Origin: an uncultured Christensenellaceae bacterium
GTDB taxonomy: Bacteria > Bacillota > Clostridia > Christensenellales > UBA3700
DNA: 64,000 bases
Assembly: GCA_910587685.1 (NCBI GenBank)
Contig: CAJUMY010000004.1
Location: 47,706 to 111,705, forward strand
Reading direction: 5' to 3'
Below the pieces are notes generated by a model. That model ran no database searches. It had not been told where the DNA came from and saw nothing but the letters and a program-made list of their open reading frames with translations. Shown piece after piece: positions 1,008 through 38,723 of the stretch (within the stretch, counting starts at the first letter, position 1; the number at the start of each line of letters is the position of its first letter). The translations under genes were made by a program, and so were the position numbers.

Positions 1008-1358
1008 ATGAAAATCGGAGAGGTATGTTTATTAACAAACGACGTTATTCGTTTATCGAATTTTTATAAGATGCTATTTAACGTCGATAATCATTGCGAT
1101 GATGACGTTCACCAATTTATTTTTTCCGAAGAAACGACGCTCACTATCTATAACGACGGAATACAGCGAAAAACCAATCTTCAAAATATTTGTCTTGCAT
1201 TCACGGTAGATGACTTAGATACTGAATACGGGAGATTGAAAGAGCTTGGCGTTGAGATCGTTTCACCGCCGACAACGCGGCCTTGGGGAGCAAAGAACAT
1301 GAGCTTTTTAGACCCTGATAAAAACTTGATTATTTTTAGAAGTTTTCCCAAACAATAA
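1008..1358 (+). CDS. VOC/glyoxalase-bleomycin resistance family protein
   Basis: ATG at 1008 sits 7 nt after an AGGAGG RBS. The protein is ~116 aa with a VOC-like pattern (ICLAFTVDDLD...LKELGVEIVSPPTTRPWGAKNMSFLDPDKNLI). Confidence 0.7.
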   Translation: MKIGEVCLLTNDVIRLSNFYKMLFNVDNHCDDDVHQFIFSEETTLTIYNDGIQRKTNLQNICLAFTVDDLDTEYGRLKELGVEIVSPPTTRPWGAKNMSFLDPDKNLIIFRSFPKQ

Positions 1359-2791: not shown

Positions 2792-2983
2792 ATTTTCCCT
2801 CGTATCGAAATGAAGTCGTTCGTATCTTTATGCTAGCATATCTATTTTGCTTTGTCAATAACGGAGAGAAGAGCCTAATGAGGGAGAGGAATAAAAGCTC
2901 TGCCAAATTACAGCGAAGCGAAATTTTGCGAGTGGTCGGAGAAAAGCGAGTCTGTTGAAGAAAGAGTCGATTCGTTTTGTAAA

Positions 2984-3020
2984 AATAACTATCCACCAGC
3001 TAAGCTGGTGGATAGTTATT
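2984..3020. repeat. perfect 37-bp palindrome (18-bp arms)
   Basis: AATAACTATCCACCAGCT-A-AGCTGGTGGATAGTTATT, read directly. It lies between divergently oriented transcription units. Confidence 0.85.
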
Positions 3021-3064
3021 ACCGTTAGTTTGAAAATACGCAGCGCGTAATTCCTTCGATTGTG

Positions 3065-3093
3065 TTGACATACTCTTTGCGGCGTGGTATTAT
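3065..3093 (+). promoter_or_regulatory. sigma70-like promoter of the que operon (TTGACA-17-TATTAT)
   Basis: -35 TTGACA 3065..3070, 17-bp spacer, -10 TATTAT 3088..3093. Confidence 0.55.
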
Positions 3094-3106
3094 ATATCTA
3101 ATTAAT

Positions 3107-3150
3107 CGGACAGTTCGTTTGCGCCATCCTGTCGTTAAACAAAACCAGGG
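3107..3150 (+). promoter_or_regulatory. preQ1-I riboswitch aptamer
   Basis: 5-bp stem GACAG/CUGUC with a C-containing loop, followed by the A-rich tail GUUAAACAAAACCAGG. This resembles the Thermoanaerobacter preQ1-I aptamer (...CCCAGUUAACAAAACAAGG) as I recall it. It sits directly upstream of queDE-folE-queCF. Confidence 0.6.
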
Positions 3151-3178
3151 CATCTTAAGAGGAAGAGTCTTTTTTGGC

Positions 3179-3209
3179 GCAGTCGTTTTGTCACGGCTGT
3201 ATTTTTTTT
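3179..3209 (+). terminator. candidate expression-platform terminator of the preQ1 riboswitch
   Basis: Stem GCAGUCG/CGGCUGU (7 bp, 2 G:U) followed by AUUUUUUUU, just before the queD RBS. Confidence 0.45.
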
Positions 3210-3224
3210 GCAAAGGGAGAGGAT

Positions 3225-3644
3225 ATGTATTATTTAAAAACTTCCGCTTGTTTTGACAGCGCGCACTTTCTTCACGGATACAACGGCAAGTGCGCAAATA
3301 TCCACGGTCACCACTGGATTGTGAAAGTAAAGATAAACGGTGACAAATTGCAGGAAAGCGGCGAAAAGCGCGGTATGCTTTTGGACTTCGGCGATTTTAA
3401 GCAGGCGGTAAAAGAGCTTGCAAAAGGCTTTGACCACACGTTTATTTACGAAAAAAACACTCTTAAACCTGCGACTGTTGTCGCGCTTAAAGAAGAGGGG
3501 TTTTCATTGGTTGAAACGGATTTCAGACCCACTGCCGAAAACTTTGCCGCGCACATATTCGCCGAACTTTACAACAAAGGCTTGCCTGTTTCCTGCGTGG
3601 CTGTTTACGAGTCGCCCGAAAACTGCGCGGTGTACGGTGAGTGA
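3225..3644 (+). CDS. queD: 6-carboxy-5,6,7,8-tetrahydropterin synthase
   Basis: RBS AGGGAGAGG precedes the ATG at 3225. N-terminus MYYLKTSACFDSAHFLHGYNGKCANIHGHHW is the typical QueD His/Cys motif. Confidence 0.85.
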   Translation: MYYLKTSACFDSAHFLHGYNGKCANIHGHHWIVKVKINGDKLQESGEKRGMLLDFGDFKQAVKELAKGFDHTFIYEKNTLKPATVVALKEEGFSLVETDFRPTAENFAAHIFAELYNKGLPVSCVAVYESPENCAVYGE

Positions 3645-3645
3645 T

Positions 3646-4311
3646 ATGTTTTGTTTTAAAGTTGCCGAAAAGTTTGTAAGCATAAACGGCGAAGGTCCGC
3701 GCGCGGGCGAGCTTGCCGTGTTTCTGCGGTTTTGTGGCTGCAATCTTAATTGTAGCTATTGCGATACGCGCTGGGCAAATACCGCCGACGTAAAATACGA
3801 GCTTGCTTCCGCGGGAGAGCTTGTTGAATATGTGAAATCGACGGGCGTAAAAAACGTTACCCTGACGGGCGGCGAGCCGATTTTACAGGCGGATATTGCG
3901 CGGCTTATAGCGCTGCTGGGAGCGTCGGGCGCAGACGTCGAAATAGAAACTAACGGAAGCGTGCCGTTGGAAGAAATCGTTTCCCTTTCGCCTCGTCCCG
4001 CCGTTACCGCCGATTATAAACTTCCTTCAAGCGGAATGGAAAAATATATGCTGATAGAAAACTTTTCTTGCCTTACGCTACGTGACGCGGTCAAGTTTGT
4101 GGTCGGGGATATGCGCGATTTGGCGCGCGCGGAAGAGATCATAAACGAGTACGGACTTATAGACAGGTGCCGCGTTTATTTTAGTCCCGTGTTCGGAAAA
4201 ATCAAGCCTGAGGAAATAGTGGAGTTTATGAAAGAGCGTAAACTTAACGGCGTACGCTTGCAATTACAGTTACATAAAATGATCTGGAAACCCGATATGC
4301 GCGGGGTATAG
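3646..4311 (+). CDS. queE: 7-carboxy-7-deazaguanine synthase (radical SAM)
   Basis: Start MFCFKVAEKFVSINGEGPRAGELAVFLRFCGCNLNCSYCDT carries the CxxxCxxC radical-SAM cluster. The longer ORF-track start at 3418 overlaps queD and is rejected. Confidence 0.85.
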   Translation: MFCFKVAEKFVSINGEGPRAGELAVFLRFCGCNLNCSYCDTRWANTADVKYELASAGELVEYVKSTGVKNVTLTGGEPILQADIARLIALLGASGADVEIETNGSVPLEEIVSLSPRPAVTADYKLPSSGMEKYMLIENFSCLTLRDAVKFVVGDMRDLARAEEIINEYGLIDRCRVYFSPVFGKIKPEEIVEFMKERKLNGVRLQLQLHKMIWKPDMRGV

Positions 4312-6185: not shown

Positions 6186-6906
6186 CTAATGTTCGTTGGA
6201 CTGAGGGGAAACAAAAAAGATACTGTGAGCAGGGCGTAAGCCGGTGTCACGGTATCTTGGTGGTGCACCAAGTGATTTAATATCCGAATTTTTTGTTGCT
6301 TCAATTTCAGAAAGGGATACTGTCTGCGTTCCGTCTTTGAAGTTAAAAGTGATAGTAAATTTATCGTCAAACAGGTAAATTGAGTTCACAAACCCGTCTA
6401 TAAGCCGACGTTTACCTTCAAGCGTGGTAATATCAAGATTTCTGAACTGCTCTATACCGAATTGTATTTGCTCTTTCGTAAGGAAGGGCTTTTTTATTTT
6501 TTCTTGCAAAATGGCGATTTCGATTTCTTTCTTTTTGCTTTCAAGTTGTGCGAGTCTGTCCTTCGTGGTGTCCGTGATAATGCCTTGCTCGATAGCGTTC
6601 ATAAGATTTTCGATGCGCTTTTCGGTGTCGGTAAGCTGTCCTTTCAAATGCGGTATTCTCGGATTTTCTTCGCCTTGCAATACAAATATTCTTTCGGTAA
6701 GGTATTCAACTAACTTATCGTCGTGCAGAACTTTCATAGCCTTTTCTACGACCAAATCTTCTATCCAATCTTTCCGCACAGCTTTCTTGTCGCAGATATG
6801 CACCTTCTTTGTGTTAGCGCATTTGTAGTAACGGTAAACCCTTGAAGTTCCCATACCGCTCTCACCAACCATATGAGTATTGCATTTTCCACAGAAAAGT
6901 TTACTA
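6186..6906 (-). pseudogene. large serine recombinase of the outer element, C-terminal half (gene split by insertion)
   Basis: The frame reads ...SKLFCGKCNTHMVGESGMGTSRVYRYYKC... (recombinase zinc-ribbon) followed by a coiled-coil. It continues the N-terminal half at 13598..14417 once 6907..13599 is removed. Confidence 0.75.
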
Positions 6907-6937
6907 ATATGCGCAAATGGACAATGTAGTTATTTGG

Positions 6938-8569
6938 TTAAGTTTCTTTGCCTAACAGTTTGTAGTAGATGTGGATTTCTCTTGCGCCCGTTTTGTCGTC
7001 GGGGCTTGCACCTATGGTTATATACTCTATAAGTTCAAGGCACAATTCCCGTGTAAGTTCGGGTACGTCGGTATAGCGTTTGAGCCTACGGATAAATTCG
7101 TCCACGTCGGCTTCGTTTTTGCTTACGACGGACAGCGCGTTTTCAAGGTCGGTTATTTCAGCTTTCAGCTCGTCTTGTTCTTCGGTGTACTTGGCAAGAA
7201 GTTTCAAACAAATATCTTCGGGTATCTTGCCCAACACTTTGTCCTCGTAAACCGATTGCGTCAGCCGTTCAAGCTCGTTAAACCGTTTCGTCTTTTGCGC
7301 AAGGTCTTTCTTGTCGGCGTTATACTTTGCCGCAGAGATTTGTTCTTTGTATTTCAAGAAGTCCGCTCGTGCCTTTTGCTCGTCGTCCAAGATTAGCTTT
7401 GCCTTTGCGCGTATATCGTTAAGCACCACTTGTTCTATATCCTCGCGCCGTATGTAGTGGTTATAGCAATAGAATTTTCCGAACCGCGAGTGATTGCCGC
7501 AAATGTAGTGGTAACGAATACGTCTTTCGGGATGCTCTTTGGACGGTTTCAAATCTTGCTGTCCGAGCTTCATTTTACCGCCGCAGTCCGCACAAAACAT
7601 CAGTCCCGATAAAACGTGCATTGTTCCTCTCGAAGTGTGCTTGCCGTGGCTTGCAACGGACTCCTCGATTTCTCGGCATTTATCCCAAAGCTCTTGCGTT
7701 ACGATAGGCTCGAACGCATTGGGGAATACGATAGGCTCGCGGTTTGTGCGCCGTCTGTTCTTGTAAGATACGGTAGTATAGCGCAAACGTATCAAATGAC
7801 CGAGATACATCGGGTTTTTGAGAATACTCCGAAGAATACTGTCCGCCCATAAGTTCTTGTTCGGCTTTTTGTTGGTTACGCCGAACTTCTCATACAGATA
7901 TACGGCGGGGATAGGGACTTTCTCGTTGTTGAGAACGGTATAGATTTCGTTTAACGTCTTTCCCGTCGCTCTCATCTCGAAAATGCGTCTTACAATCGTT
8001 GCCGCCGGCTCGTCGATTACGGGCAAGCATTTATCGCCCGTACCTTTTACATAACCGTAAGGCGCGTGAGTAGAACGATATTTGCCCGCTTTTGCGTTCG
8101 CTTCGGTTACCGCGCGAATTTTCTTTGACGTGTTTGCCGAGTGCCATTCGTTAAAGATGTTCATAATCGGCATCATATCCATTCCCGCGCTGTTTACGTT
8201 CGCCGTGTCTACGTTGTCCGAAATGGCGATAAAGCGGATATTGTATATTGGGAAAATATAATCGACGTACTGTCCCACAAAGATGTAGTTCCTGCCGAAA
8301 CGGGATAAATCTTTTACGATTATCGTGTCGATTTTGCCTGTCTTGGCGTCCTCTAACAGTCTTTGCACTTGCGGTCTGTCGAAGTTTGTTCCGCTGTACC
8401 CGTCGTCAACGTATTCGTCTATAACCGTCCAACCGCGCTCTTGCGCGTACTTGGTTAAGATATTGCGTTGGTTTTCGATTGACAGCGATTCGCCTTGACG
8501 CTCGTCGTCCTTGCTGAGTCGCATATATAGTCCGACTTTGTTATTCAGTTGTATTTGCTTTGATTTCAT
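6938..8569 (-). CDS. large serine recombinase (TnpX-like)
   Basis: 543 aa. N-terminal resolvase catalytic domain (GLYMRLSKDDE...SLSIENQR, DDGYSG), recombinase domain, Cys zinc ribbon (CADCGGKM...CGNHSRFGKFYC) and a C-terminal coiled coil. The stop lies 31 nt from the element end. Confidence 0.9.
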   Translation of the reverse strand: MKSKQIQLNNKVGLYMRLSKDDERQGESLSIENQRNILTKYAQERGWTVIDEYVDDGYSGTNFDRPQVQRLLEDAKTGKIDTIIVKDLSRFGRNYIFVGQYVDYIFPIYNIRFIAISDNVDTANVNSAGMDMMPIMNIFNEWHSANTSKKIRAVTEANAKAGKYRSTHAPYGYVKGTGDKCLPVIDEPAATIVRRIFEMRATGKTLNEIYTVLNNEKVPIPAVYLYEKFGVTNKKPNKNLWADSILRSILKNPMYLGHLIRLRYTTVSYKNRRRTNREPIVFPNAFEPIVTQELWDKCREIEESVASHGKHTSRGTMHVLSGLMFCADCGGKMKLGQQDLKPSKEHPERRIRYHYICGNHSRFGKFYCYNHYIRREDIEQVVLNDIRAKAKLILDDEQKARADFLKYKEQISAAKYNADKKDLAQKTKRFNELERLTQSVYEDKVLGKIPEDICLKLLAKYTEEQDELKAEITDLENALSVVSKNEADVDEFIRRLKRYTDVPELTRELCLELIEYITIGASPDDKTGAREIHIYYKLLGKET

Positions 8570-9116: not shown

Positions 9117-10127
9117 TTACTTGCCGCCTTTGTCGCTTGTGTTGCGGTTTCCGTTAAAGGAAGTAGGCGGACTTTTCTTTGCCCTTGACTTTTTCAAAAG
9201 CGCGTCGAACTCGTCGGGATATGCGCTCATCATATCCGTTACCATTTTGAAAGCGGTGTCGTTTGCTTTGCCTTGCCGTTCAGCTTTTTGCAACTGCTCG
9301 AACAAATAGTCCGTATCTCTGTTCTTGATAGCGATATGCTCTTTGTACGCCGCGTTTTCTACACGCAAACTTTCTATTTCCGCTTCGACTGCCTTTTTCT
9401 TTTTCGGAATAGGCTTACTGCGCTCGGCTTCGATAGAACTTTCAATACCGCTTAAATATTCTTCGGCTTTGGTCTTGGCTTGCTTTTCCGTTTCTTCGGC
9501 TCTCTTTTCGGCACGGTCTATAATCGTCTTGGCTTTGAACTCTGCTGTGTCGATATGCTTTGCTTGGCTGCCTTCCTTGCCGCGTTCCAAACCCCATTTC
9601 TTGCCGACTTTTTCGTGAAAGTCCGTTTGCAATTCCCGTAAGCTCGCTCGCGTGAACAACTGCTTTGCGCTCAACTTGTTCCCGACGATAGGAATAAGAT
9701 TTAAGTGCAAATGCGGCGTTGTTTCGTCCGTGTGGACTACCGCCGAAATAATATTCTCTCTGCCGAATCTTTCGGCAAAATACTCCGTAGCGTCCTCAAA
9801 AAACCGTTGCCGTTCCCACGGCGTTAAGCCGATAAAGAAGTTACCGTCCGATCCGATAATAAACGAACACATCAACACCGCGTCGCTTCGTACTTTTCGC
9901 TTCAACGGCAGAGTGGAAATTCGTTCGTTGATGTATTCCATATAACTGCCTTGCGGATAAACGATGTGGTAGTTGTTGTGCGTTCTCGACAAATCTATTT
10001 GCGGGTTGTCCGGACTGTAATTCTCGTCGCGCTCGTTTTCCTTTTCGATAGGCGTTACGTTGTCGCGCTTTTTGTTGTTATACTTTTTCAGTGTGCAAAT
10101 CAGATAAGATATAGTTGTTTCCTCCAA
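9117..10127 (-). CDS. MobV-family relaxase (Mob/Pre, TnpZ-like)
   Basis: 336 aa. HTDETTPHLHLNLIP is the HxDExxPHxH motif of Mob_Pre relaxases. The C-terminus is a Lys/Glu-rich coiled coil. Confidence 0.85.
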   Translation of the reverse strand: MEETTISYLICTLKKYNNKKRDNVTPIEKENERDENYSPDNPQIDLSRTHNNYHIVYPQGSYMEYINERISTLPLKRKVRSDAVLMCSFIIGSDGNFFIGLTPWERQRFFEDATEYFAERFGRENIISAVVHTDETTPHLHLNLIPIVGNKLSAKQLFTRASLRELQTDFHEKVGKKWGLERGKEGSQAKHIDTAEFKAKTIIDRAEKRAEETEKQAKTKAEEYLSGIESSIEAERSKPIPKKKKAVEAEIESLRVENAAYKEHIAIKNRDTDYLFEQLQKAERQGKANDTAFKMVTDMMSAYPDEFDALLKKSRAKKSPPTSFNGNRNTSDKGGK

Positions 10128-10195
10128 AATAATTTTCTAATGTTATACCGCCGTAAATAAGCCCCGCAGGGCACACGAACTTATGTAGCGAAGCG

Positions 10196-10232
10196 GAATA
10201 AGTATAGTGTGCTATACCTATGGTATAGACGC
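10196..10232 (+). other. oriT-like site of the inner element (pMV158-type)
   Basis: TAAGTATAGTGTGCTATACCTATGGTATAG contains an inverted repeat around GTGTG. It closely resembles the pMV158 oriT AAGTATAGTGTG/TTATAC as I remember it, and lies ~70 nt upstream of the mob start. Confidence 0.5.
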
Positions 10233-10305
10233 CCGTCCGCGACGATATTTTGCTTCCCGTAACAGTACGGTTGGCGTGCGTGTTTGCTTTCCGTTTGCTT
10301 GCCGA

Positions 10306-10326
10306 TTAAGGCGGTCTGATTATCAT
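10306..10326 (-). CDS. conserved 6-codon mini-ORF MIIRPP* with RBS
   Basis: GGAGGTAA RBS 6 nt upstream of the ATG. A homologous mini-ORF (MIFKPP*) sits at the equivalent position of the second mob module (16425..16445). Confidence 0.3.
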   Translation of the reverse strand: MIIRPP

Positions 10327-10636
10327 AGTGATTACCTCCGAATTGTTAGTTTTATATCTTCGTCCACGCAAGAAAGAGCGGGAAAGATACCGTAAAAAAG
10401 GCGCGAAAAAAGCCGCTGAACGCTTAACGTATCACCGACTTCTAACCGTGTTTAGCAACGTCTGATTGCTCTATGGTGGTTAGCCATTCTATTGAATTGT
10501 TTGCATTATTTTAGCTCAAAAGATACTCCTTAACCAAAAAATTTGTAACACAAAATAGACCATCTACGCTATCCGACTTTCGCACTCTCAAAGAGATCTC
10601 GGATAACTCCGGCTGCACTCATTGTCATACAAAACT

Positions 10637-10802
10637 GTACGACAATAAAAGCCTATCACGGCTCACGAATTTTGCGTACACTTAAAAAACCTACGCTCTT
10701 TCCGTAAGCTAAGGCGAGGCGGCTATACCGCCCAAAACCTTCTGCTTTCTGTGGACGAACTCTTTAACGCCCACCGCAGAACTTCTACCCAAAAGGGTAC
10801 AC
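10637..10802 (-). repeat. ~165-bp conserved module, copy A (inverted relative to copy B at 16119..16283)
   Basis: The reverse complement aligns by eye with 16119..16283 with only scattered mismatches (e.g. GTTCTGCGGTGGGCGTTAAAGA, CAGAAGGTTTTGGGCGGTATA, CTTAGCTTACGGAAAGAGCGTAGGTTTTTT, GTACGCAAAATTCGT, GCCGTGATAGGCTTTTAT). Confidence 0.8.
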
Positions 10803-10830
10803 TGCCACAAACTACATTGTGGTAGTGCGC

Positions 10831-10859
10831 ATTATATCACAAACTTTTGTTCGTTGCAA
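10831..10859 (-). promoter_or_regulatory. strong promoter reading into module A (TTGCAA-17-TGnTATAAT)
   Basis: On the minus strand: -35 TTGCAA (10854..10859), 17-bp spacer, extended -10 TGATATAAT (10831..10839). Confidence 0.5.
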
Positions 10860-11097
10860 GCCTTTCACCGCCCATAAACGGGCGGTGAAACAAGTTTTTA
10901 TAGAAAGTTTTGTCGAAAAGTATAATCGAGCGATTATTTGTTTGAACCATTGTCTACCACTTGTTTTTTTGCATTGAATGTGATATAATGATTGTGCGAT
11001 AAACAGTAATTTAACGGAGATAGACCGATAAGGCGTAACTGTCTTATCGGTCTTTTATTCTAATAGAAATTATTTTGAGAAAATTACTTAAAAATGC

Positions 11098-11128
11098 TTG
11101 CTCGTTACGCCGCGTAATGAATTATAAT
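11098..11128 (+). promoter_or_regulatory. MerR-type promoter with 19-bp spacer and dyad operator
   Basis: -35 TTGCTC 11098..11103 and -10 TATAAT 11123..11128. The 19-bp spacer contains the palindrome TTACGC-C-GCGTAA (11105..11117). This geometry is typical of MerR-activated promoters. Confidence 0.55.
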
Positions 11129-11145
11129 ATATGCGAGGTATATTT

Positions 11146-11934
11146 ATGGCAAGATATAAAGCAATTCCGCAAGGCTATATGACGGTTGGCGAAGTCGCAA
11201 AGAAAATGGGTGTAACCGCTCGGGCGTTGCAATATTATGACCGCGAAGGGCTATTTAGTCCGTCTTGTATCAGCGAAGGCGGACGGCGTTTGTATAGTGA
11301 TAAAGATATTGTTAAGTTGCATCAAATACTTACTCTTAAATCGTTAGGGTTTTCATTTGATGAAATTAAAAATCGTTTGACTTCTATTGATACGCCACAA
11401 AAGGCAATAATAGCGTTGACCGAACAAAGCAATTCGATACAAACACAAATAAATACGCTTACGCAATCTTTACAAGCAATCGAATTATTAAAAAACGAAA
11501 TAGAACAAATGCAAACAGTTGACTTTTCAAAGTATGCCGATATAATTGTCAACTTGCAAATGGGAAATAAATATTACGGTTTAATTAAACATTTTGACGA
11601 TAATATGCTTGATTACTGTCATAAGAAATTCGATAAAGATACGGGTGTCGCGTTTATAAATAAGTTTAACTTTATTGTCAGTAAAATAGAAAAATGCGTT
11701 GAAAACGACATAGCACCCGACAGCGAACATGGACAACTTATTGCAAAAGAATTTTGGCAACTTATAACAGAGTTCACGGGCGGCGATATGAGTATATTAT
11801 CACAACTGATGAATTTCGGTAACGCGCAAGCGGGTATCGATATGCAAAACGTTCTAAATACTTTTATCCAGCCTGCACTGGGCGTTTATTTTGAGAATTT
11901 GGGTATTAACCCTTTCGAGGTAAAAAATGAATAA
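11146..11934 (+). CDS. MerR-family transcriptional regulator
   Basis: N-terminal HTH YMTVGEVAKKMGVTARALQYYDREGLFSP...GGRRLYSDKDI. GAGGT RBS precedes the ATG at 11146. Has a ~190-aa C-terminal effector domain. Confidence 0.85.
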   Translation: MARYKAIPQGYMTVGEVAKKMGVTARALQYYDREGLFSPSCISEGGRRLYSDKDIVKLHQILTLKSLGFSFDEIKNRLTSIDTPQKAIIALTEQSNSIQTQINTLTQSLQAIELLKNEIEQMQTVDFSKYADIIVNLQMGNKYYGLIKHFDDNMLDYCHKKFDKDTGVAFINKFNFIVSKIEKCVENDIAPDSEHGQLIAKEFWQLITEFTGGDMSILSQLMNFGNAQAGIDMQNVLNTFIQPALGVYFENLGINPFEVKNE

Positions 11935-12739
11935 TATAATCGCGGTCAATGAATTAAAAAAGAGTTACGGCGCGAACTCCGTATTGAAAGGTATAAATTT
12001 AACCGTGCATAAAGGCGAAATCTTTGCTTTGCTCGGCGTAAACGGTGCGGGAAAAACTACGGCTTTGGAATGTATTGAGGGCTTACGCACTTACGATAGC
12101 GGAAATATAACCGTAAACGGGAAAATCGGTATTCAATTACAATCGTCCGCTTTACAAGCCTATATTAAACCTATGGAAGCCGTTAAACTGTTTGCGAATT
12201 GGCATAAAACCGTACCCGATAAAGAAATGTTAAATGCTTTCGGAATACCCGAATTGTCCAAAAAGAAATATGCCGATTTATCAACGGGACAAAAACGCCG
12301 CTTACACCTTGCGCTTGCCCTTATAGGCAACCCCGATATTATTTTTCTTGACGAACCGACGGCGGGGCTTGACGTTGAAGGGCGCGTATCGCTACACGAG
12401 CAAATCCGCGCATTAAAATCACAAGGTAAAACAATAATTCTTGCAAGCCACGATATGGCGGAAGTTGAAGAATTATGCGACAGAGTAGCAGTTTTACGGG
12501 ACGGGAATATTGCTTTTATCGGAACGGTTGACGAATTTACCGCTATGGGCGGCAAAAGGCATATTATACGCATTAAAACTGCCGACGGGCAAAATGAATA
12601 CGAAACGGAAAATATAACAGAAACTTTGTTTACGCTATTATCGGAATACAAGCAAAAAGGAATACCGATTTCCGAAATTCAGACCGACAGAGTGTCGCTT
12701 GAACAAAATTTTATAAACATTGTGAGAGGTGCGGAATAA
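11927..12739 (+). CDS. ABC transporter ATP-binding protein
   Basis: Walker A GVNGAGKTT, signature LSTGQKRRL, Walker B IIFLDEPTAGLD. Overlaps merR by 8 nt. Confidence 0.9.
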   Translation: MNNIIAVNELKKSYGANSVLKGINLTVHKGEIFALLGVNGAGKTTALECIEGLRTYDSGNITVNGKIGIQLQSSALQAYIKPMEAVKLFANWHKTVPDKEMLNAFGIPELSKKKYADLSTGQKRRLHLALALIGNPDIIFLDEPTAGLDVEGRVSLHEQIRALKSQGKTIILASHDMAEVEELCDRVAVLRDGNIAFIGTVDEFTAMGGKRHIIRIKTADGQNEYETENITETLFTLLSEYKQKGIPISEIQTDRVSLEQNFINIVRGAE

Positions 12740-13449
12740 TGAAAGCATTACTGTACGGAATTGGTTTGCAATTCAAGTTTGACATACGCAGTAAAGGTAT
12801 GCTTATTGCTTGTTATCTCGTGCCGCTTATATTTTTCCTGTTTATGGGCGGGATTTTCACTTCTATTGATCCAAACGCTACAAAAACACTTACCTCGTCT
12901 ATGACGGTATTTACAATCATAATGAGCGCATTGTTCGGCTTACCGCCCGCAGTTGCGGAAATCTACGGAACAGATGTTAAAAAGGTCTATAAGGCAAACG
13001 GCGCACCTATTTGGTTCGGCGTTATATCGCAATTTATTTCGTCTTTTATACATACGCTTATTTGTTGTCTTATAGTATTTGCTCTTTCGCCTTTAATTTT
13101 CAAAGCGGAGTTGCCATCTAATTTATTGTGGTATTTCTTATCACTTGTAGCATTACTTGCGGTAACTCTTGCTATCGGTTGTGTTTTCGGGCTTTTGATT
13201 AAACAGCAAGCAAAGTTGACAATGGTAGCAATGGCAATATTTTTGCCTTCCACTATGCTGTCGGGCATTATGTTTCCCGCAGATATGTTGCCACAATTTA
13301 TGCAATATATTGCCTATGCTTTCCCCGCGACAATAGCATTTAAGGCAATGACGAGTTTTCAAGTTTGGCATTTACCCGTATTGTTCGGTATATTTATTTT
13401 ACTTTGCGACGTTATCGCTCTACTGTTAAAAATTAAAGTCAAAAGATAG
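12739..13449 (+). CDS. ABC-2 type transporter permease
   Basis: 236 aa with ~6 hydrophobic helices. Its start overlaps the ATPase stop (ATGA-type coupling). Confidence 0.75.
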   Translation: MKALLYGIGLQFKFDIRSKGMLIACYLVPLIFFLFMGGIFTSIDPNATKTLTSSMTVFTIIMSALFGLPPAVAEIYGTDVKKVYKANGAPIWFGVISQFISSFIHTLICCLIVFALSPLIFKAELPSNLLWYFLSLVALLAVTLAIGCVFGLLIKQQAKLTMVAMAIFLPSTMLSGIMFPADMLPQFMQYIAYAFPATIAFKAMTSFQVWHLPVLFGIFILLCDVIALLLKIKVKR

Positions 13450-13597
13450 ATTTCCTTAAATAAAATTTCAATTTAGCGTTCTAAATGTGTTGATAAAAAG
13501 TCGAGATTCCATAAGGAGTCCCGACTTTTGCTTTTACATTGATTTGTCCGCTTTAATTCTAATTTAGATTTTGTGTGTCCATTTGCGTAAACTACAT

Positions 13598-14417
13598 TAA
13601 GGGTAAGTAAATAATCATCTTCGGCTTTATGTCTTGCAGGTGCTTTCTTGTTTTTTGCCAAACGCTGTTGCACTCTCTCGAAAACATCTTCCGATACAAG
13701 CGGTGGAATAATGTTCGGTACTGTTACATCTCGGAATTTATATTCGCCCAAATACCTGCGGTTAGATAACATACGCTGAACGCCCGTGCCGTTAATCTTG
13801 CCGCCCCGATAAGAGCGGATTTTCTTTTTGTCAAGGTAGTCAACGATATACTTAATTGTATGACCGTCGGCGTACATTGTAAATATCTCTTGAAGGATAG
13901 GTGCAAAGGTTTCGTGCGGCTCGAACTTTCTTTCCGCATTTAGTTTATAGCCGAAAGTAATTTGTCCGCCGTTGTTTATGCCTTTGAGTACGTTTTCAGT
14001 CATACCACGCACAACCTTTTCGGCAAGCTCGGCAGAATAGTATTCCGCCATACCTTCCAAAACCGATTCAAGGAGTATGCCTTCCGAGCCTTCGGCAATA
14101 GCTTCTTTTGCGGATACAACTTTTACACCGTTTTTGCGGAGTAGTGCTTTGTAGTGTGCGCTGTCGTAACGGTTACGGGAAAAGCGGTCTAACTTCCAAA
14201 CTATAATGCAATCGAAAGCGTGTTTATAGCTGTCCTTAATCATTTGCTGAAATTCGGGACGGTTATCCGATTTAGCGGAAAGCGCACGGTCTATGTAAGA
14301 CTTGATAACGTCAATTCCTGCGTGTTCGGCAAATTCCATACACTCACGAAGCTGACCTTCGATAGACGCTTCCGTTTGGTTGTCTGAACTGTATCTTGCG
14401 TAAATGACTGCTCTCAT
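13598..14417 (-). pseudogene. large serine recombinase of the outer element, N-terminal half
   Basis: MRAVIYARYSSDNQTEASIEGQ... is the resolvase catalytic Ser domain. The homologous sequence ends at ...AEDDYLLTL (codon 273, 13601..13599). The ORF then runs into inner-element DNA to a stop at 13473. Confidence 0.8.
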
Positions 14418-14418
14418 T

Positions 14419-15516
14419 TTAACCTCTGTTCAATTTGTATTTTTCAGATAAAATATTGGTTGCATTTTTATGTTTGCTTAAAATAAATATATCCTTAATA
14501 TTTGATAATGTATTTGGGTCGTCTAGGTCATCTGTAGTTAAAGATAGCATGCTCGTTTGCCCTATAATTTTAGTTGTAGTTTTATCATTATCTATAACTT
14601 GTTTTATATCTTCTGTTAAAAAATAATCCTCCGCATAGAGTAAGACGATATAATTTATAACAGACAATTTTTCTTCTTCGGAAAGCTTCTTAAATTTTTT
14701 GTAAAAACTCCTATATCGAGTTTCATTATTATTGACAAAAAGAATAATTGCTGTTTTATTCTCAAGAGGAAAAATGCAAACATGTAATTCTTTTGTTTTA
14801 TATTTTGGATTATAGCAGTATATATCATTTATAATGTTACCGTCAAAATCAAGATAAAGTGTTATTTGTCCTTGATACGCAATTGGTGTAACATAATCTA
14901 ATAGTTTATAATAAATCAGATAATATCCATCATTATCATCCTTTTTTAATAACGATTTAGCTTTTCTAATAGAAGTATAATATTCTTCATAATCCATTTC
15001 TTTTATGGCTTGAATACCTTCAATAAAGTTTTCTTTACCTATGGTTTTTTCTTTAAGAACATCATACATCTTTATTTCATCCATACGTTTGCTAATGGCT
15101 TTGAGACCATTTTTTAAGGCAATTTGAGCTAAAATCTTTGAAGAAGGTTTTTCGTTATAAGCTTTTGGATTTTCGTATTCTTGAAATACAACGCTATCAC
15201 ATTCACGGCAAATGAGTCTAAATGTGCCTGCCTCATTTATACCGTTTTCAGATTTTATGTAAAACGGATATTTAACTATTGAGTTGCAAGTACAAACTTT
15301 TCCGTCCTTTTCTATATTTCTTAAACAAAACGCAGGGACAGTATGTGAGTTGCAAAAAGAAGTTTGTTCTTTGCCACAAATCAAGCAAGAAGAAGGTTTT
15401 GCACGATTTTTTGCCTCTCGCATAATGCGGCTCATAGTTTTGTTTATCTCAATCTTATCGCCGGTAAACTCACTATTCAATTTGTCACTATTTTCTTTTA
15501 AATTGAGTGCTTTCAT
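14419..15516 (-). CDS. orphan Cys-rich protein (365 aa), function unknown
   Basis: Long AT-rich ORF with N-terminal CLICG...CNSH and CRECD clusters. The stop is 1 nt from the recombinase ATG, and the gene is co-oriented with the upstream XRE gene. Confidence 0.6.
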   Translation of the reverse strand: MKALNLKENSDKLNSEFTGDKIEINKTMSRIMREAKNRAKPSSCLICGKEQTSFCNSHTVPAFCLRNIEKDGKVCTCNSIVKYPFYIKSENGINEAGTFRLICRECDSVVFQEYENPKAYNEKPSSKILAQIALKNGLKAISKRMDEIKMYDVLKEKTIGKENFIEGIQAIKEMDYEEYYTSIRKAKSLLKKDDNDGYYLIYYKLLDYVTPIAYQGQITLYLDFDGNIINDIYCYNPKYKTKELHVCIFPLENKTAIILFVNNNETRYRSFYKKFKKLSEEEKLSVINYIVLLYAEDYFLTEDIKQVIDNDKTTTKIIGQTSMLSLTTDDLDDPNTLSNIKDIFILSKHKNATNILSEKYKLNRG

Positions 15517-15583
15517 TAATCATTATAATCCTTGGTGTGTTATTTCATTTGGTTTAATTATTTCTCGTCATTAGACCAAAGCA

Positions 15584-15943
15584 TTATTCTTTTCCTTCTA
15601 AAATTTTCAATAGCGTTTCTTTCAATTTAGCATTTGCAGGAGAGGAAGGGTCGAAGCACATTTCGACAAACGCTTGCATTTGCTCGTTGTCTTGCCAAAC
15701 CTTCGGCTGAAAATCATAGAGCTTCCCTTGTGGACTATCGCACCTACCGTATATATAGTCAAGTGATACGTCGAAGTAATCCGCATACCATAAAAGAATA
15801 TTGCTCGGAACTTCCGATTGACTATTCTCATAACGGTTGACCGCAGACTGTACCATTTTGCCGTTTGCCTTTGCGATCTTTGCTTGTGATACTTTTGTGT
15901 TCTCGCGTAATGCTTTTAAGCGTTGACCTATAACTTTATTCAT
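15584..15943 (-). CDS. XRE-family helix-turn-helix regulator
   Basis: IGQRLKALRENTKVSQAKIAKANGKMVQSAVNRYENSQ is a typical HTH_XRE N-terminus. Confidence 0.8.
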   Translation of the reverse strand: MNKVIGQRLKALRENTKVSQAKIAKANGKMVQSAVNRYENSQSEVPSNILLWYADYFDVSLDYIYGRCDSPQGKLYDFQPKVWQDNEQMQAFVEMCFDPSSPANAKLKETLLKILEGKE

Positions 15944-16063
15944 TGAATCACCTCAAAAGAGAGTATAACACACTAGAAAGATAATGTCAATATAATATCT
16001 GGGTTAATTTAATCTTTTCGACAAAACTTCCCACAAATCGCAAACATTTGTTTATATAATTTA

Positions 16064-16092
16064 TTGACTTGCTACTGCCATTGTGATAAAAT
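16064..16092 (+). promoter_or_regulatory. strong promoter reading into module B (TTGACT-17-TGnTAAAAT)
   Basis: -35 TTGACT 16064..16069, 17-bp spacer ending in TGA, -10 TAAAAT 16087..16092. Confidence 0.5.
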
Positions 16093-16118
16093 TCATACTA
16101 TACGATATAAGTCGTATT

Positions 16119-16283
16119 GTACCCTTTTGAGGGTAGAGTTCTGCGGTGGGCGTTAAAGAATTTGCCCATAGGATGCAGAAGGTTTTGGGCGGTATAACCG
16201 CCTTGCCTTAGCTTACGGAAAGAGCGTAGGTTTTTTAGTTGTACGCAAAATTCGTATGCCGTGATAGGCTTTTATAAGTGTAC
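16119..16283 (+). repeat. ~165-bp conserved module, copy B
   Basis: See copy A (10637..10802). Same order relative to its promoter, mini-ORF, oriT and mob gene. Confidence 0.8.
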
Positions 16284-16318
16284 AATTTTTTAGCTATAAC
16301 GACGTTCAATATCAACAT

Positions 16319-16357
16319 TGAATCCGTGCGGAGCGTAATGCCGAGCGGATTTTTTGT
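16319..16357 (+). terminator. possible terminator/attenuator downstream of module B
   Basis: AATCCG...CGGATT stem (6 bp plus a weak inner stem) followed by TTTTTT. The loop is rather large. Confidence 0.35.
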
Positions 16358-16424
16358 CGTTGTATTTTTAGCTATCTACCACCTTTTGCGTGGACGAGAT
16401 AAATATATTTTGGAGGTAAACACA

Positions 16425-16445
16425 ATGATTTTCAAACCGCCATAA
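16425..16445 (+). CDS. conserved 6-codon mini-ORF MIFKPP* with RBS
   Basis: GGAGGTAA RBS 6 nt upstream. Homologous to 10306..10326. Confidence 0.3.
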   Translation: MIFKPP

Positions 16446-16494
16446 TACGGCAAGCAAACGGAAAGCAACTGCATAGGAAACAACTTATCGCCGA

Positions 16495-16522
16495 GCATAA
16501 GTGTAGCTCACTACACTTAGCA
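16495..16522 (-). other. oriT-like site of the outer element
   Basis: The minus strand reads AAGTGTAGTGAGCTACACTT, an inverted repeat homologous to AAGTATAGTGTGCTATAC of copy A. It lies ~100 nt upstream of the mob start. Confidence 0.45.
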
Positions 16523-16615
16523 AGCTAAGTTGCGTTCGCCCTGCGGGGCTTTCGACCGCACGACAAAACAGAGATTTTAAGGAGGATTTTAAGTATAAGT
16601 TATTTAGTATGCCAT

Positions 16616-17605
16616 ATGGAAAAGTATAAACGGCAAGACGTTACGCCCGTTGAAAAAGAGAACGAAAGAGATGAGAACTATCAAGGCACTAATCCGCAAA
16701 TAGACAGCGAGAGAACAAACGGAAACTATCACTTGATATATCCACAGGGCAAGTACATAGAGATGATTAACAAGCGGCTTGATACTCTTACACTCAAAAG
16801 GAAAATTCGCTCGGACGCTATCCTAATGAACTCGTTTGTAATCGGATCGGACGGAGAGTTTTTCAAGGGTATGCGAGCTTGGGAACAACACGCTTTCTTT
16901 GAAGATTGCACCCGCTTCTTTATGGAAAAGTACGGCTATGAAAATATGCTGTCCGCGGTAGTCCACGTGGACGAAACAACACCGCACCTGCACTTAAATT
17001 TCGTGCCTATCAATGACGGACGATTGAGTAGCAAAAGCCTATTCGACAGACAGAAACTTGCGGAACTGCAAACCGAGCTATGGGAACAAGTCGGAAAGAA
17101 ATACGGTTTACAACGTGGTAAGGAAAACAGTCAGGCAACGCATATTACAGCCGCAGAACATAAGGCAAAAGTCATTGTGCAATCGGCGGAACAAAAGCGA
17201 GATGAGATTGACAGACAGACCGAGCAAAAGCAAGACGAACTTGACGGACTTACCCAAACGATTGAAGCGGTAACGCAAGCGATAGGCAAGCCTATACCAA
17301 AAAAGAAGAAACAAGCTGCGGACGAAATCACGGCTTTAAGAGCAAGGAACGCCGTACTCGAAGAAGAAGTCAAGCGAGCAAACAAAGACCGTACAGACCT
17401 ATTCAGAGAGTACACAAGAGAGAAACGACGAGCGGACGAATACGAAAAGACCGTACAAGAAGTTGCGGAAATCAAGGCGGTACTGCCCGAAGGTTACGAC
17501 CAACTGTTACAGGACGTGCAGTATGAAAAAGCCGAAAGATACGAAAGAGAACGGCAACGAAATCTCGCCCGTATTCACGGACGATACAGCGACCACCAAA
17601 TGTAA
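16616..17605 (+). CDS. MobV-family relaxase (second copy)
   Basis: HVDETTPHLHLNFVP motif. The N-terminal ~190 aa are clearly homologous to 9117..10127 (VTPVEKENERDENY..., RSDAILMNSFVIGSDGEFF...). Confidence 0.85.
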   Translation: MEKYKRQDVTPVEKENERDENYQGTNPQIDSERTNGNYHLIYPQGKYIEMINKRLDTLTLKRKIRSDAILMNSFVIGSDGEFFKGMRAWEQHAFFEDCTRFFMEKYGYENMLSAVVHVDETTPHLHLNFVPINDGRLSSKSLFDRQKLAELQTELWEQVGKKYGLQRGKENSQATHITAAEHKAKVIVQSAEQKRDEIDRQTEQKQDELDGLTQTIEAVTQAIGKPIPKKKKQAADEITALRARNAVLEEEVKRANKDRTDLFREYTREKRRADEYEKTVQEVAEIKAVLPEGYDQLLQDVQYEKAERYERERQRNLARIHGRYSDHQM

Positions 17606-18004: not shown

Positions 18005-19095
18005 GTGAATTATACTATCAAGTGCAACAGGTGAGAATAAAAAAAGAGTTCATATAAATCAATGTGTTATAATTAGTTTGCAACAACAAAAAACACAGGA
18101 GAAATATATGAACTACACCCATCTTACCATAGAAGAACGCGCTTGTCTACGAAAATATTACGTTGAAGGAAAAAGTTACAGAGAAATAGCACGGTTGCTC
18201 GGGAGGAACGTAAGCACAATCTCGCGCGAGATTGCTCGCAATTACACTCACCGTTACGCCATAAATACATACTACCCGCACACAGCGCAAAAGTAATATC
18301 TGCTTCGCCGCTCATTCTGTCACATGGGAATGTTTTGGAATAAAGAAGTAATTGCTTACATAAATGAAAAGTTACAGTTAACGTGGTCACCGGAACAAAT
18401 AGCGAGTACGCCGTGTCATTTAAAGATGCCTACATTTAAAACGATATATCGTTGGATATATGAAAAGTATTTGGCAGGCGGGAACGTTAAAGTATTACGG
18501 AAGAAAGGCAAAACGAGGAAACGGCTTGGAAACGGCGGAAGATTTACAATGGGGAAAAGTATACGAAAACGAGATAAAAGCGTATATAAACGCAAAGAAT
18601 TCGGACATTGGGAAGCAGATACGGTAGTATCCGGACGAGGAAAGACGAAAGCCTGTTTTGCAACGCTTGCGGAAAGAAAGACAAGATTTTATATAGCAAT
18701 TAAGATACCGAACAGAAACGGTGAAACAATGGCGAGAGCAATAATACAAGCATTGGGCAAGCTGCCGAAAGGAGCAGTTAAGACGATAACTTGTGACAGA
18801 GGCAGCGAATTTGCTAATTGGCGACAGGTTGAAAAAGAACTTAATTGTGATATGTATTTTGCAGACCCGTATTGTGCTTGGCGGAAAGGAACGAATGAGA
18901 ACCTGAACGGTTTATTGAGAGAATTTTATCCCAAGGGCAGAAATCTTTCTCGCGTTTCTAAAAAAACGCTCGAAAAAAATCTGGCGTTAATTAACGCCAG
19001 ACCGAAAAAGGTTTTGGGCTTTAAAAAACCCGTTTATTTATTTAACTTTTTTTTAACTAAGTGTTGCACTTAGTTTGACAATTCACTATATGAGT
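18005..19095 (+). mobile_element. IS30-family insertion sequence
   Basis: Imperfect terminal inverted repeats GTGAATTATACTATCAAGTGCAACA (left) and TGTTGCACTTAGTTTGACAATTCAC (right). TATATG occurs in both flanks but is not flush with the IR ends. Contains an IS30 transposase. Confidence 0.75.
18108..19073 (+). pseudogene. IS30-family transposase with an in-frame TAA stop
   Basis: The N-terminal HTH part (MNYTHLTIEERACLRKYY...TAQK) and the DDE part (...WSPEQIAS...HWEADTV...DRGSEF...NENLNGLLREF) are in the same frame. They are separated only by TAA at 18294..18296. Confidence 0.8.
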
Positions 19096-28167: not shown

Positions 28168-28244
28168 TGGTGCACCCTAAGGGATTCGAACCCCTAACCT
28201 TTCGGTCCGTAGCCGAATGCTCTATCCAGTTGAGCTAAGAGTGC
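28168..28244 (-). tRNA. tRNA-Arg (anticodon ACG)
   Basis: The reverse complement GCACUCUUAGCUCAACUGGAUAGAGCAUUCGGCUACGGACCGAAAGGUUAGGGGUUCGAAUCCCUUAGGGUGCACCA folds as a cloverleaf. Anticodon loop CUACGGA, encoded CCA. Confidence 0.9.
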
Positions 28245-36877: not shown

Positions 36878-36954
<77 letters not shown>

Positions 36955-36958
36955 TTTT

Positions 36959-37035
36959 GGCGGCGTAGCTTAGTTGGTTAGAGCGGCCGGTTCATACCCG
37001 GCAGGTCATTGGTTCGACTCCGATCGCCGCTACCA
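36959..37035 (+). tRNA. elongator tRNA-Met (CAU)
   Basis: GGCGGCGUAGCUUAGUUGGUUAGAGCGGCCGGUUCAUACCCGGCAGGUCAUUGGUUCGACUCCGAUCGCCGCUACCA. An Ile2 (lysidine) identity is not formally excluded. Confidence 0.8.
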
Positions 37036-38351: not shown

Positions 38352-38723
38352 TCGTATGGGAAAGTGATTTGATCAGACTGGCCATGCAAATATTCTACGA
38401 CCTGCCCGAAAGGGTTCAAGGCATACGGACAGCCGAGGTCAACTGCCGATTGGCGGAGCGTAAGCGTCTGCCTGTTGATTGAGTTAAAAGCTCAAATTTT
38501 ATAAGTTGGTTCCTTTATAACCGGAGCGCTCGACGCGCCATAACTTGTGAAACGGTCAATATGAGTAGTAAAAGTAAGAGATATTTGCTATATAGACTCT
38601 GAGATGAATCGGTCTCCTATGCGAGAAACTGACGTCTTTCGCCGCCTTAGGCAGAAGCGTCGTGATTTGTCGAATTATGATATTGTCCTTTTCAAGTAAC
38701 GGCTAGAGCCGTTACTTTTTTTT
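38352..38723 (+). promoter_or_regulatory. ~370-nt untranslated leader ending in an intrinsic terminator (candidate riboswitch/attenuator)
   Basis: No convincing ORF. Terminator AGTAACGGC-TAGA-GCCGTTACT plus TTTTTTT at 38695..38723, 33 nt before the speD ATG. Confidence 0.4.

Follow-up and report, generated by a model that had tools for sequence, protein, structure and literature searches.

Why should two relaxase genes that have drifted far apart be preceded by almost the same stretch of noncoding DNA? The question is raised by a 64,000-nt stretch (positions 47,706 to 111,705 of contig CAJUMY010000004.1 in assembly GCA_910587685.1, from an uncultured Christensenellaceae bacterium), called the window here and meaning the whole of the DNA analysed. 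It holds two relaxase genes, mobA and mobB, and upstream of each lies one of two inverted copies of a module of ~165-200 nt. The module is conserved among relatives, constrained to fold on the sense strand, and linked both to a promoter and to a relaxase operon. A reading made from the sequence alone had offered three possibilities: a conserved transcribed RNA such as a mob leader, a lagging-strand origin, or a recombination or protein-binding region. Judged by its conservation and covariation, the module is a real, strongly constrained and previously uncatalogued structured element, and the most likely reading is that small integrative mobilizable elements of gut Clostridia carry it as a leader RNA of their mobilization operons.

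When the window is searched with a covariance model made from relatives, exactly two matches come up, copy A at 223 bits and copy B at 220 bits (Table 1), and a repeat finder marks inverted repeat arms of 156 nt, 88% complementary, at 10628-10783 and 16137-16292. Pairwise alignment of the two upstream regions gives a single near-identical block, running from TGTACCC to GTACA, with diverged flanks. By global alignment of segments, identity is 86.9% in the module, 52% in the promoter and 5′ hairpin, 53% in the next 150 nt upstream, 42% in the remaining leader and 60% in the mob coding sequences (48% at the amino acid level). The sequence-only reading was thus right that the copies align over their length and that most of the surrounding DNA has diverged. 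It had named equal identity across the flanks and mob as the mark of a mere recent duplication; identity is far from equal (42-60% outside the module, with relaxases 48% identical as proteins), and that explanation is excluded. By these alignments the module is under far stronger constraint than its neighbours. A coding region was also rejected, since there are stops in all six frames, indels that are not multiples of three and no conserved open reading frame (ORF). The copies belong to two different elements, A and B, adjacent and head to head, and by comparison with related loci element A appears to end near 11016. Homologous inversion between the copies, suggested earlier, is possible in principle (the longest identical run is 33 nt), but nothing seen supports it.

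The module is found in 41 related loci (given L numbers here) from Christensenellales and Clostridia assemblies. A protein-guided scan with one genome per species gave 18 loci, almost all from Christensenellales or other uncultured Clostridia of mouse, rabbit and rumen gut. In all 16 of those with intact upstream DNA, BLASTN finds the module 300-650 nt ahead of the relaxase; the other two have a truncated relaxase (L128) or a contig end (L138). A DNA-pattern scan of metagenomes yielded 25 further loci. A MobV relaxase 26-100% identical to the window's lies downstream in 13 of them, while in six (L146, L150, L154, L158, L159 and L165) the module precedes a NikA-like gene (PF21983) and a MobA/VirD2-type relaxase (PF03432), a relaxase system unrelated to MobV. 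Three more (L151, L156 and L161) are truncated remnants, in two of which homology to element A ends exactly at the 3′ end of the module, and another three (L149, L157 and L164) lie at contig ends. In every intact locus the module is upstream of the relaxase operon and co-oriented with it. The two relaxase families share an upstream cassette, in the order TTCGACAAAAC box, promoter, variable hairpin and module, which continues, often with a second block bearing a terminator, into a mini-ORF and oriT (origin of transfer) repeats specific to the relaxase family.

The nearest plasmid relaxases over most of the protein length are only ~32% identical, and the module has no BLASTN match in plasmid and phage collections. 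Scanning IMG/VR with an 18-mer pattern gave no match; hits of a 14-mer were taken as chance, the pattern being too short to be specific, and two further patterns brought up five loci, none of which the covariance model confirmed. Rfam release 15 has no match in the region at gathering thresholds, and its E-value mode returned chance-level hits only (at most 24 bits, far under the thresholds). The searches that the sequence-only reading had called for therefore ended with no Rfam family and, by BLASTN, with further copies in related loci.

For both window copies the predicted folds are much more stable than those of shuffled sequence, whether computed as RNA (z = -4.4) or as DNA of either strand (z = -4.6 and -4.1). 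When 29 distinct copies are aligned with MAFFT, blind to structure, compensatory changes already appear in helix P2 (TTCTGC/GCAGAA versus TTCCGC/GCGGAA), in its inner part (GTGGGCG/CGTCCAC, ATGGATA/TATCCAT, ATGAGC/GCTCAT) and in P3 (GGGCGG/CCGCC, AGGCAG/CTGCCT, GAACGG/CGTTC). The covariance model finds one copy per related locus, and in its alignment of 32 copies standard pairs fill 92.7% of cells, against 38-49% when partners are slid by 1-3 columns, and both-sided changes occur at 14 pairs (54 cells), a level reached in 0 of 500 column shuffles. The covariation comes from P0, P2 and P3; P1, closed by a C(UUCG)G loop in three lineages, has one-sided changes only and is poorly aligned. With compensatory changes above controls in three helices, and with no coding frame, the module looks as structured noncoding RNAs generally do, and the covariance check proposed at the outset is borne out. 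The covarying helices contain 75 G·U cells and 6 A·C cells, with the same trend in the structure-blind alignment, so the mob-sense strand reads as the constrained one: it is there, and not on the complement, that selection has kept pairing.

The ~65-nt 3′ domain that follows P3 is almost invariant and could adopt two shapes. One is P4, an 8-bp hairpin with a U-run, which a terminator scan finds terminator-like in both copies, with a modest stability of -7.5 kcal/mol. The other is a long irregular hairpin made by GCCU/AGGC, GCUUACGGA/UUCGUGAGC and GCGUA/UACGC pairings, which is the minimum-energy fold of the 3′ half of copy A and also the RNAalifold consensus. As modelled, the two are mutually exclusive. 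Natural variants carry a ~115-nt insert in the 3′ domain (L127, L132 and L136) or a 33-nt hairpin after P1 (L136, L146, L149, L157, L158 and L165), each at a loop position, and the inner helix of P2 is missing in L149 and L158. From the insertion and deletion variants, P3 and the 3′ domain seem to be the indispensable core. L158 has, in addition, a tandem second copy of the last hairpin and U-run.

The near-consensus extended -10 promoters noticed earlier before each copy are both present, and a promoter scan gives each 10 of 12 consensus matches plus the TG extension. Such a promoter (at least 9 of 12 matches plus TG, spacer 17) stands at a constant distance upstream of the module in ~33 of 38 loci; its -35 hexamer varies (TTGACT, TTGCAA, TTGCGA, TTGTAA, TTGACA), as does the spacer sequence. 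P0 lies at the predicted 5′ end, where the hairpin is kept but its sequence differs with the lineage. Two lineages (L130/L121/L137 and L141/L142) have no recognisable promoter, and there co-oriented genes end 0-50 nt before the module. A promoter held at a fixed distance, and co-oriented genes in front of the promoter-less variants, fit a sense transcript that would begin with the module. In element B and in L146 the module promoter is back-to-back with that of a divergent XRE-type regulator gene, which on its sequence is the layout of a repressor-controlled switch. Nearly all loci have the TTCGACAAAAC box, ~45 nt ahead of the -35 hexamer; it may be an operator for the XRE-type regulator.

Downstream, the distances of ~330 and ~510 nt between copies and mob genes were given correctly by the sequence-only reading, and the mini-ORF and oriT-like repeats that it placed ahead of mob are both real. 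The operon of element A continues through mobA into a large serine recombinase, and its leader would therefore govern both DNA processing and integration/excision. The exact 12-mer AAGTATAGTGTG occurs antisense to mob in nine loci (element A and eight relatives); an inverted repeat, ACTTAT...ATAAGT, stands before it, as it does in pMV158. That plasmid transfers its coding strand, and MobM contacts 5′-AAGtaTAGTGTG-3′ beside the G/T nick (PMC5863519); in IMESag-rpsI, arranged oriT-mob-ssoA, the coding strand is the one nicked (PMC5090054). Because the MobM-site motif (AAGTATAGTGTG/C) is on the mob-antisense strand in the MobV elements studied here, their oriT would be inverted relative to both; what is transferred would be the mob-antisense strand, which bears the module's complement. 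Nicking is predicted on the + strand after 10211 in element A and on the - strand in element B. The leader would then enter the recipient first and the relaxase gene last, unlike in pMV158, and the module, 0.3-0.6 kb from the predicted nick, would lie in the first-entering region. That the relaxase operon enters last is likewise the usual rule in NikA-type systems (R64, F).

Among the three original possibilities, the transcribed mob leader is favoured by the fixed-distance promoter, the compensatory changes, the sense-strand wobbles and the co-orientation. We consider it likely that the element works as an RNA; that, as a leader RNA, it controls in cis whether elongation proceeds into the mobility genes is, on our analysis, a nearly even call. 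The module would form the 5′ domain of a mobility-operon transcript comprising, in element A, the leader, the RPP-stop mini-ORF, oriT, the relaxase and the serine recombinase. A strong sigma-70 promoter (divergent in element B from the XRE repressor gene) would fire, the RNA would begin with the variable hairpin P0, and P1, P2 and P3 would fold, followed by the 3′ domain, in the shape of either the short terminator-like hairpin with its U-run or the long irregular hairpin. Acting in cis on its own transcript, the module would decide whether polymerase runs on through the terminators, internal and downstream, to reach the relaxase genes, by attenuation or antitermination in the manner of canT (Tn916), conAn2 (pLS20) and put (HK022). 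The RNA nature, the choice between two folds and the effect on elongation are what we infer here.

Gram-positive conjugative elements offer documented cases of leader RNAs that act in cis on elongation (PMC11658703, PMC8191782), and because such terminator-passage RNAs are known in Tn916 and pLS20-like plasmids, cis control of elongation is the best-supported mechanism. With canT, conAn2, put and EAR the module shares the character of a structured, orientation-specific, noncoding 5′ part of an operon for transfer or DNA processing, in a mobile element of Gram-positive bacteria. canT and conAn2 also lie upstream of intrinsic terminators that must be passed for transfer-gene expression, and the known ones act in cis (PMC11658703, PMC8191782); the module has the location of this class, in the predicted transcribed 5′ region, in the sense orientation, with terminators and the relaxase downstream. 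The likeness is one of position and layout, with no evident relation in sequence or structure. canT needs ~340-450 nt, and conAn2, of 260-600 nt and 30-40% identity, works with the ConAn1 protein, whereas the module has 165-200 nt, is 80-90% conserved, contains its own terminator-like hairpin and serves a mobilization operon of 1-3 genes rather than a 30-kb conjugation operon. It has no ConAn1-like gene: promoter and module have no gene of any kind between them, and the upstream gene is the divergent XRE regulator or none.

The mini-ORF, 150-310 nt downstream of the module, has the form M-x-x-(R/K)-P-P-stop in 33 loci of both relaxase families (MIIRPP, MIFKPP, MTIRPP, MKIRPP, MSNRQTIRPP and others), and its C-terminal (R/K)PP-stop is invariant across them. 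It looks like a ribosome-arrest or termination-stalling leader peptide. A tiny ORF, a strong ribosome-binding site and an invariant (R/K)-P-P-stop within the same leader recall TnaC, the Erm/Cat leaders and the tet(M) leader of Tn916, and sequences of the (R/K)-P-P-stop type are known to slow termination or elongation; this likeness concerns the mini-ORF and not the module itself. Directly after the stop come two CGGnAAGCAAA repeats, a 21-nt stretch (CGGCAAGCAAACGGAAAGCAA; 10284-10304 and 16448-16468) that is 100% identical between the copies and has variants in nearly all related loci. By reading, the invariant 3′ domain has only 4-bp or same-sense matches to the ribosome-binding site of the mini-ORF or to the repeat behind it.

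Two further parts of the leaders are less widely shared. A second conserved block, module 2, is present in the leader of copy A and in many relatives (L146, L158, L159, L165 and others) and is not found in that of copy B. It consists of nested helices (ATAGAATGGCTAACCACCATAGAGCAAT...GTTGCTAAACACGGTTAGAAGTCGGTGA...TCAGCGGCTTTTTT) and then an intrinsic terminator, has no Rfam match, and may be a separate attenuator or riboswitch-like unit. The hairpin and T-run that had been noted after copy B (16319-16357) are real, but they sit within a 78-bp insertion, bounded by an 11-bp direct repeat, that is missing from the close relatives L123, L125 and L127 (hairpin and T-run at 16321-16355), and so are rejected as the conserved end of the module. 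The insertion is common to element B, L122 and L147, and resembles a small insertion with a target-site duplication.

Table 1. Coordinates in the window of the module copies and of the features around them
Feature	Position	Strand	Remarks
Module copy A	10629..10835	-	Covariance-model match
Copy A helices	P0 10805-10822, P1 10786-10799, P2 10740-10781, P3 10717-10733	-	
Copy A near-invariant 3′ domain	10651-10715	-	Includes hairpin P4 and U-run, 10683-10710
Module copy B	16093..16291	+	Covariance-model match
Copy B helices	P0 16100-16117, P1 16120-16135, P2 16139-16180, P3 16187-16203	+	
Copy B 3′ domain	16205-16269	+	P4 and U-run, 16210-16237
Copy B tail GTGTACAATTTTTT	up to 16291	+	
Predicted promoter A, extended -10, sigma-70 type	10859..10831	-	TTGCAA-17-TGnTATAAT; predicted start ~10824
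Predicted promoter B, extended -10, sigma-70 type	16064..16092	+	TTGACT-17-TGnTAAAAT; predicted start ~16099
Predicted divergent near-consensus promoter	15962..15990	-	TTGACA-17-TATACT with TG; serves XRE-type helix-turn-helix gene 15584-15943(-)
Conserved TTCGACAAAAC box upstream of promoter A	10907..10917	-	Counterpart at 16017-16027(+)
Conserved TTCGACAAAAC box upstream of promoter B	16017..16027	+	
Module 2, second conserved leader block	10406..10492	-	Ends in intrinsic terminator (AGUCGGUGA...UCAGCGGCUUUUUU)
78-bp insertion	16298..16375	+	Direct repeat TTTTTAGCTAT at 16287-16297 and 16365-16375
Leader mini-ORF A, MIIRPP-stop	10306..10326	-	GGAGG ribosome-binding site
Leader mini-ORF B, MIFKPP-stop	16425..16445	+	GGAGG ribosome-binding site
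Putative oriT of element A	10179..10235	+	On strand antisense to mobA; inverted repeat ACTTAT...ATAAGT, then AAGTATAGTGTG (10200-10211)
Putative oriT of element B	16495..16545	-	On strand antisense to mobB; ACTTAGcttgCTAAGTGTAGTGAG at 16530..16507
mobA, MobV relaxase (Mob_Pre, PF01076)	9117..10127	-	Then large serine recombinase 6938-8569, same strand
mobB, MobV relaxase (Mob_Pre, PF01076)	16616..17605	+	48% identical to mobA

Several points weigh against the reading as an elongation-controlling leader. Promoters and transcript ends are predictions. The almost invariant 3′ domain leaves both of its folds without support from covariation, and the alternative fold that pairs downstream could not by itself prevent termination at P4, so that the switch logic is incomplete. 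P1-P2 is deleted in three assemblies (L124, L144 and L145), so part of the fold is dispensable. The promoter-less L130 group has lost the U-run and the promoter-less L141 keeps it, and the shortest leaders (L123 type) have no terminators beyond those inside the module. Finally, folded sense-strand DNA predicts the same pattern of substitutions as RNA, and its exclusion rests on the inferred nick strand.

If the module is an RNA, it could instead be a free-standing small RNA, ending at P4 and its U-run (~135 nt) or at a GUACAAUUUUUU tail (~190 nt) and acting in trans, on a protein or on some target in the host or the element, with read-through into mob incidental. Both copies do combine a strong promoter with a terminator-like hairpin and U-run inside the module, B-type copies have an irregular hairpin followed by a U6 tail, the invariance of the 3′ domain would suit a binding surface, and the truncated loci L156 and L161 keep promoter and module without a relaxase. 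We nevertheless regard this as unlikely: all intact loci have the module directly before the relaxase operon and in its orientation, the promoter-less variants lie within operons, the last hairpin of A-type copies lacks a following U-run, the P4 stem is weak, and no target was identified.

Less likely still, and in our view improbable, is a single-strand origin (sso) or leading-region single-stranded DNA signal, in which the folded strand would recruit RNA polymerase or the primosome to prime the complementary strand after transfer or rolling-circle replication. Like ssoA, ssoU and the ssoA of IMESag-rpsI, the module is ~160-200 nt long, folds strongly (as DNA on either strand, as given above), is better conserved than adjacent genes and is a portable cassette beside the oriT and mob of MobV elements (PMC5703833). 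Its distance from the predicted nick, on the side entering first, would suit such a signal, and it contains TAGCGT/GAGCGT and ATGCCGTGA strings that recall the CS-6 and RSB motifs. sso elements, however, function only on the displaced or transferred strand (PMC5703833). Homology to the pMV158 oriT and the exact 12-mer in nine loci put the predicted nick on the strand antisense to mob, and the wobble bias puts the folding constraint on the opposite, sense strand.

The ssoA hallmarks are also misplaced. In ssoA the RSB (5′-TTTATGCCGAGAAAA-3′) is followed ~40 nt later by CS-6 (5′-TAGCGT/A-3′) in the loop of a long hairpin (PMC6395029). This arrangement is absent from the module, where the CS-6-like string comes ~35 nt before the RSB-like GCCGTGATAGG, the reverse order, and where the majority variant matches the RSB at only 8 of 15 positions in a hand alignment. 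Reference RSB copies lie at 3779-3793 in the pT181-like plasmid and at 1746-1760 in the pMV158-like plasmid, just downstream of mob on the coding strand; in such plasmids, as in IMESag-rpsI, the coding strand is the transferred one and carries ssoA downstream of mob, and known ssoU also sits on the transferred strand, 5′ of the nick. A conserved duplex promoter stands at a fixed distance before the module, and an sso has no need of one. With filters off, the covariance model reached at most 15 bits, in gappy alignments (best 14.8 bits, 59-84 model positions skipped), in five reference plasmids: pT181-like, pMV158-like, pUB110, pC194 and pE194. The first two gave at most 9.4 bits, none of it at the RSB sites, and module copies score 97-223 bits. 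Homology to ssoA or ssoU is rejected on the wrong motif order, the weak RSB and the absence of a covariance-model match, and the origin proposed by the sequence-only reading, which had called for comparison with known sso sequences, is not upheld.

Two likenesses to pUB110 (L171) were judged chance, since the loop varies among module copies and the strand relation is opposite. One is an 11-nt match, CGGAAAGAGCG, just downstream of oriT; the other is a hairpin, GGTTTTGGTCGGCACTGCCGAC at 1195-1225(-), 22 nt 5′ of the oriT repeat on the transferred strand, which resembles P3 of the module (GGTTTTGGGCGGTATAGCCGCC). The module resembles the single-stranded Frpo and ssi promoters of plasmid leading regions in that it would be among the first DNA to enter and its sense RNA would have the transferred strand as template; the wobble bias, in contrast, points to the RNA-sense strand. 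A single-strand promoter of the Frpo kind was rejected, since, by reading, the -35/-10 region has no complementary partner with which it could become duplex on the transferred strand. Were the sense strand the one nicked, the sso reading would revive, as the layout would then mimic ssoU-oriT-mob of pUB110.

The recombination option survives in part. Promoter type, 3′-end type and relaxase type are reshuffled among loci, and homology between elements breaks exactly at module edges (L151 and L161), so the module is, on these comparisons, a frequent junction of mosaic exchange between elements. That it is no more than a duplex-DNA site where the XRE regulator, the serine recombinase or an accessory protein of the relaxosome binds, or a patch of homology upheld by frequent recombination between elements, is very improbable, for although such a site would also suit an invariant 3′ domain, duplex recognition predicts neither pairing-preserving compensatory changes nor a one-strand wobble bias, the helices accept at their loop positions entire additional hairpins of 33 nt and ~115 nt, and recombination alone leaves unexplained the kept promoter spacing and a P0 hairpin kept with changed sequences.

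Several recombinase or transposase genes cluster at 6186-8569(-), 13473-14417(-) and 18324-19073(+) and comprise a 543-amino-acid large serine recombinase with a 228-amino-acid fragment, a 314-amino-acid serine recombinase and an rve integrase, which suggests that at least two mobilizable elements and an insertion sequence are patched together here. The window also has a tmRNA gene, three tRNA genes and a match to the SpF59 (ldcC) small-RNA family (449-798; 28171-28244(-); 36878-37032; 38398-38449). A distance of ~5 kb separates the tmRNA gene from the first recombinase genes; integrating elements commonly land in tmRNA genes. In L146, an element with the NikA/PF03432 relaxase, a gene for a Thg1-like protein (tRNA-His guanylyltransferase family, PF04446) lies between an XRE regulator and a large serine recombinase, at 2954-3694(-) in module-oriented coordinates, the reverse of the stored locus.

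Integrative mobilizable elements abound but are poorly understood, and the timing of relaxase and recombinase expression in them is largely unknown. Here a folded element of ~200 nt has been kept at 80-90% identity while neighbouring proteins drift to 26-50%, and because it is so conserved and is shared across unrelated relaxase families, the module must interact with some component, of the host or of the transfer process, that is itself conserved. On a further reading, less likely than not, this portable cassette of mobilizable elements with unrelated relaxases would be a new class of cis-acting RNA device: its 3′ domain would recognise a conserved component of the host, be it RNA polymerase, the ribosome or a signal in the form of a small molecule or protein, switch between terminator and long hairpin and, with the RPP-stop peptide, gate relaxase and recombinase on entry or on a host signal. 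Conceivably, the invariant core might also be self-cleaving or catalytic in some other way. If the module is indeed an elongation-controlling leader RNA, the RNA control of conjugation operons known from canT and conAn2 would extend to the small mobilizable elements of gut Clostridia, and the module would offer both a compact, well-defined motif for mechanistic work and a sequence tag for finding such elements in metagenomes.

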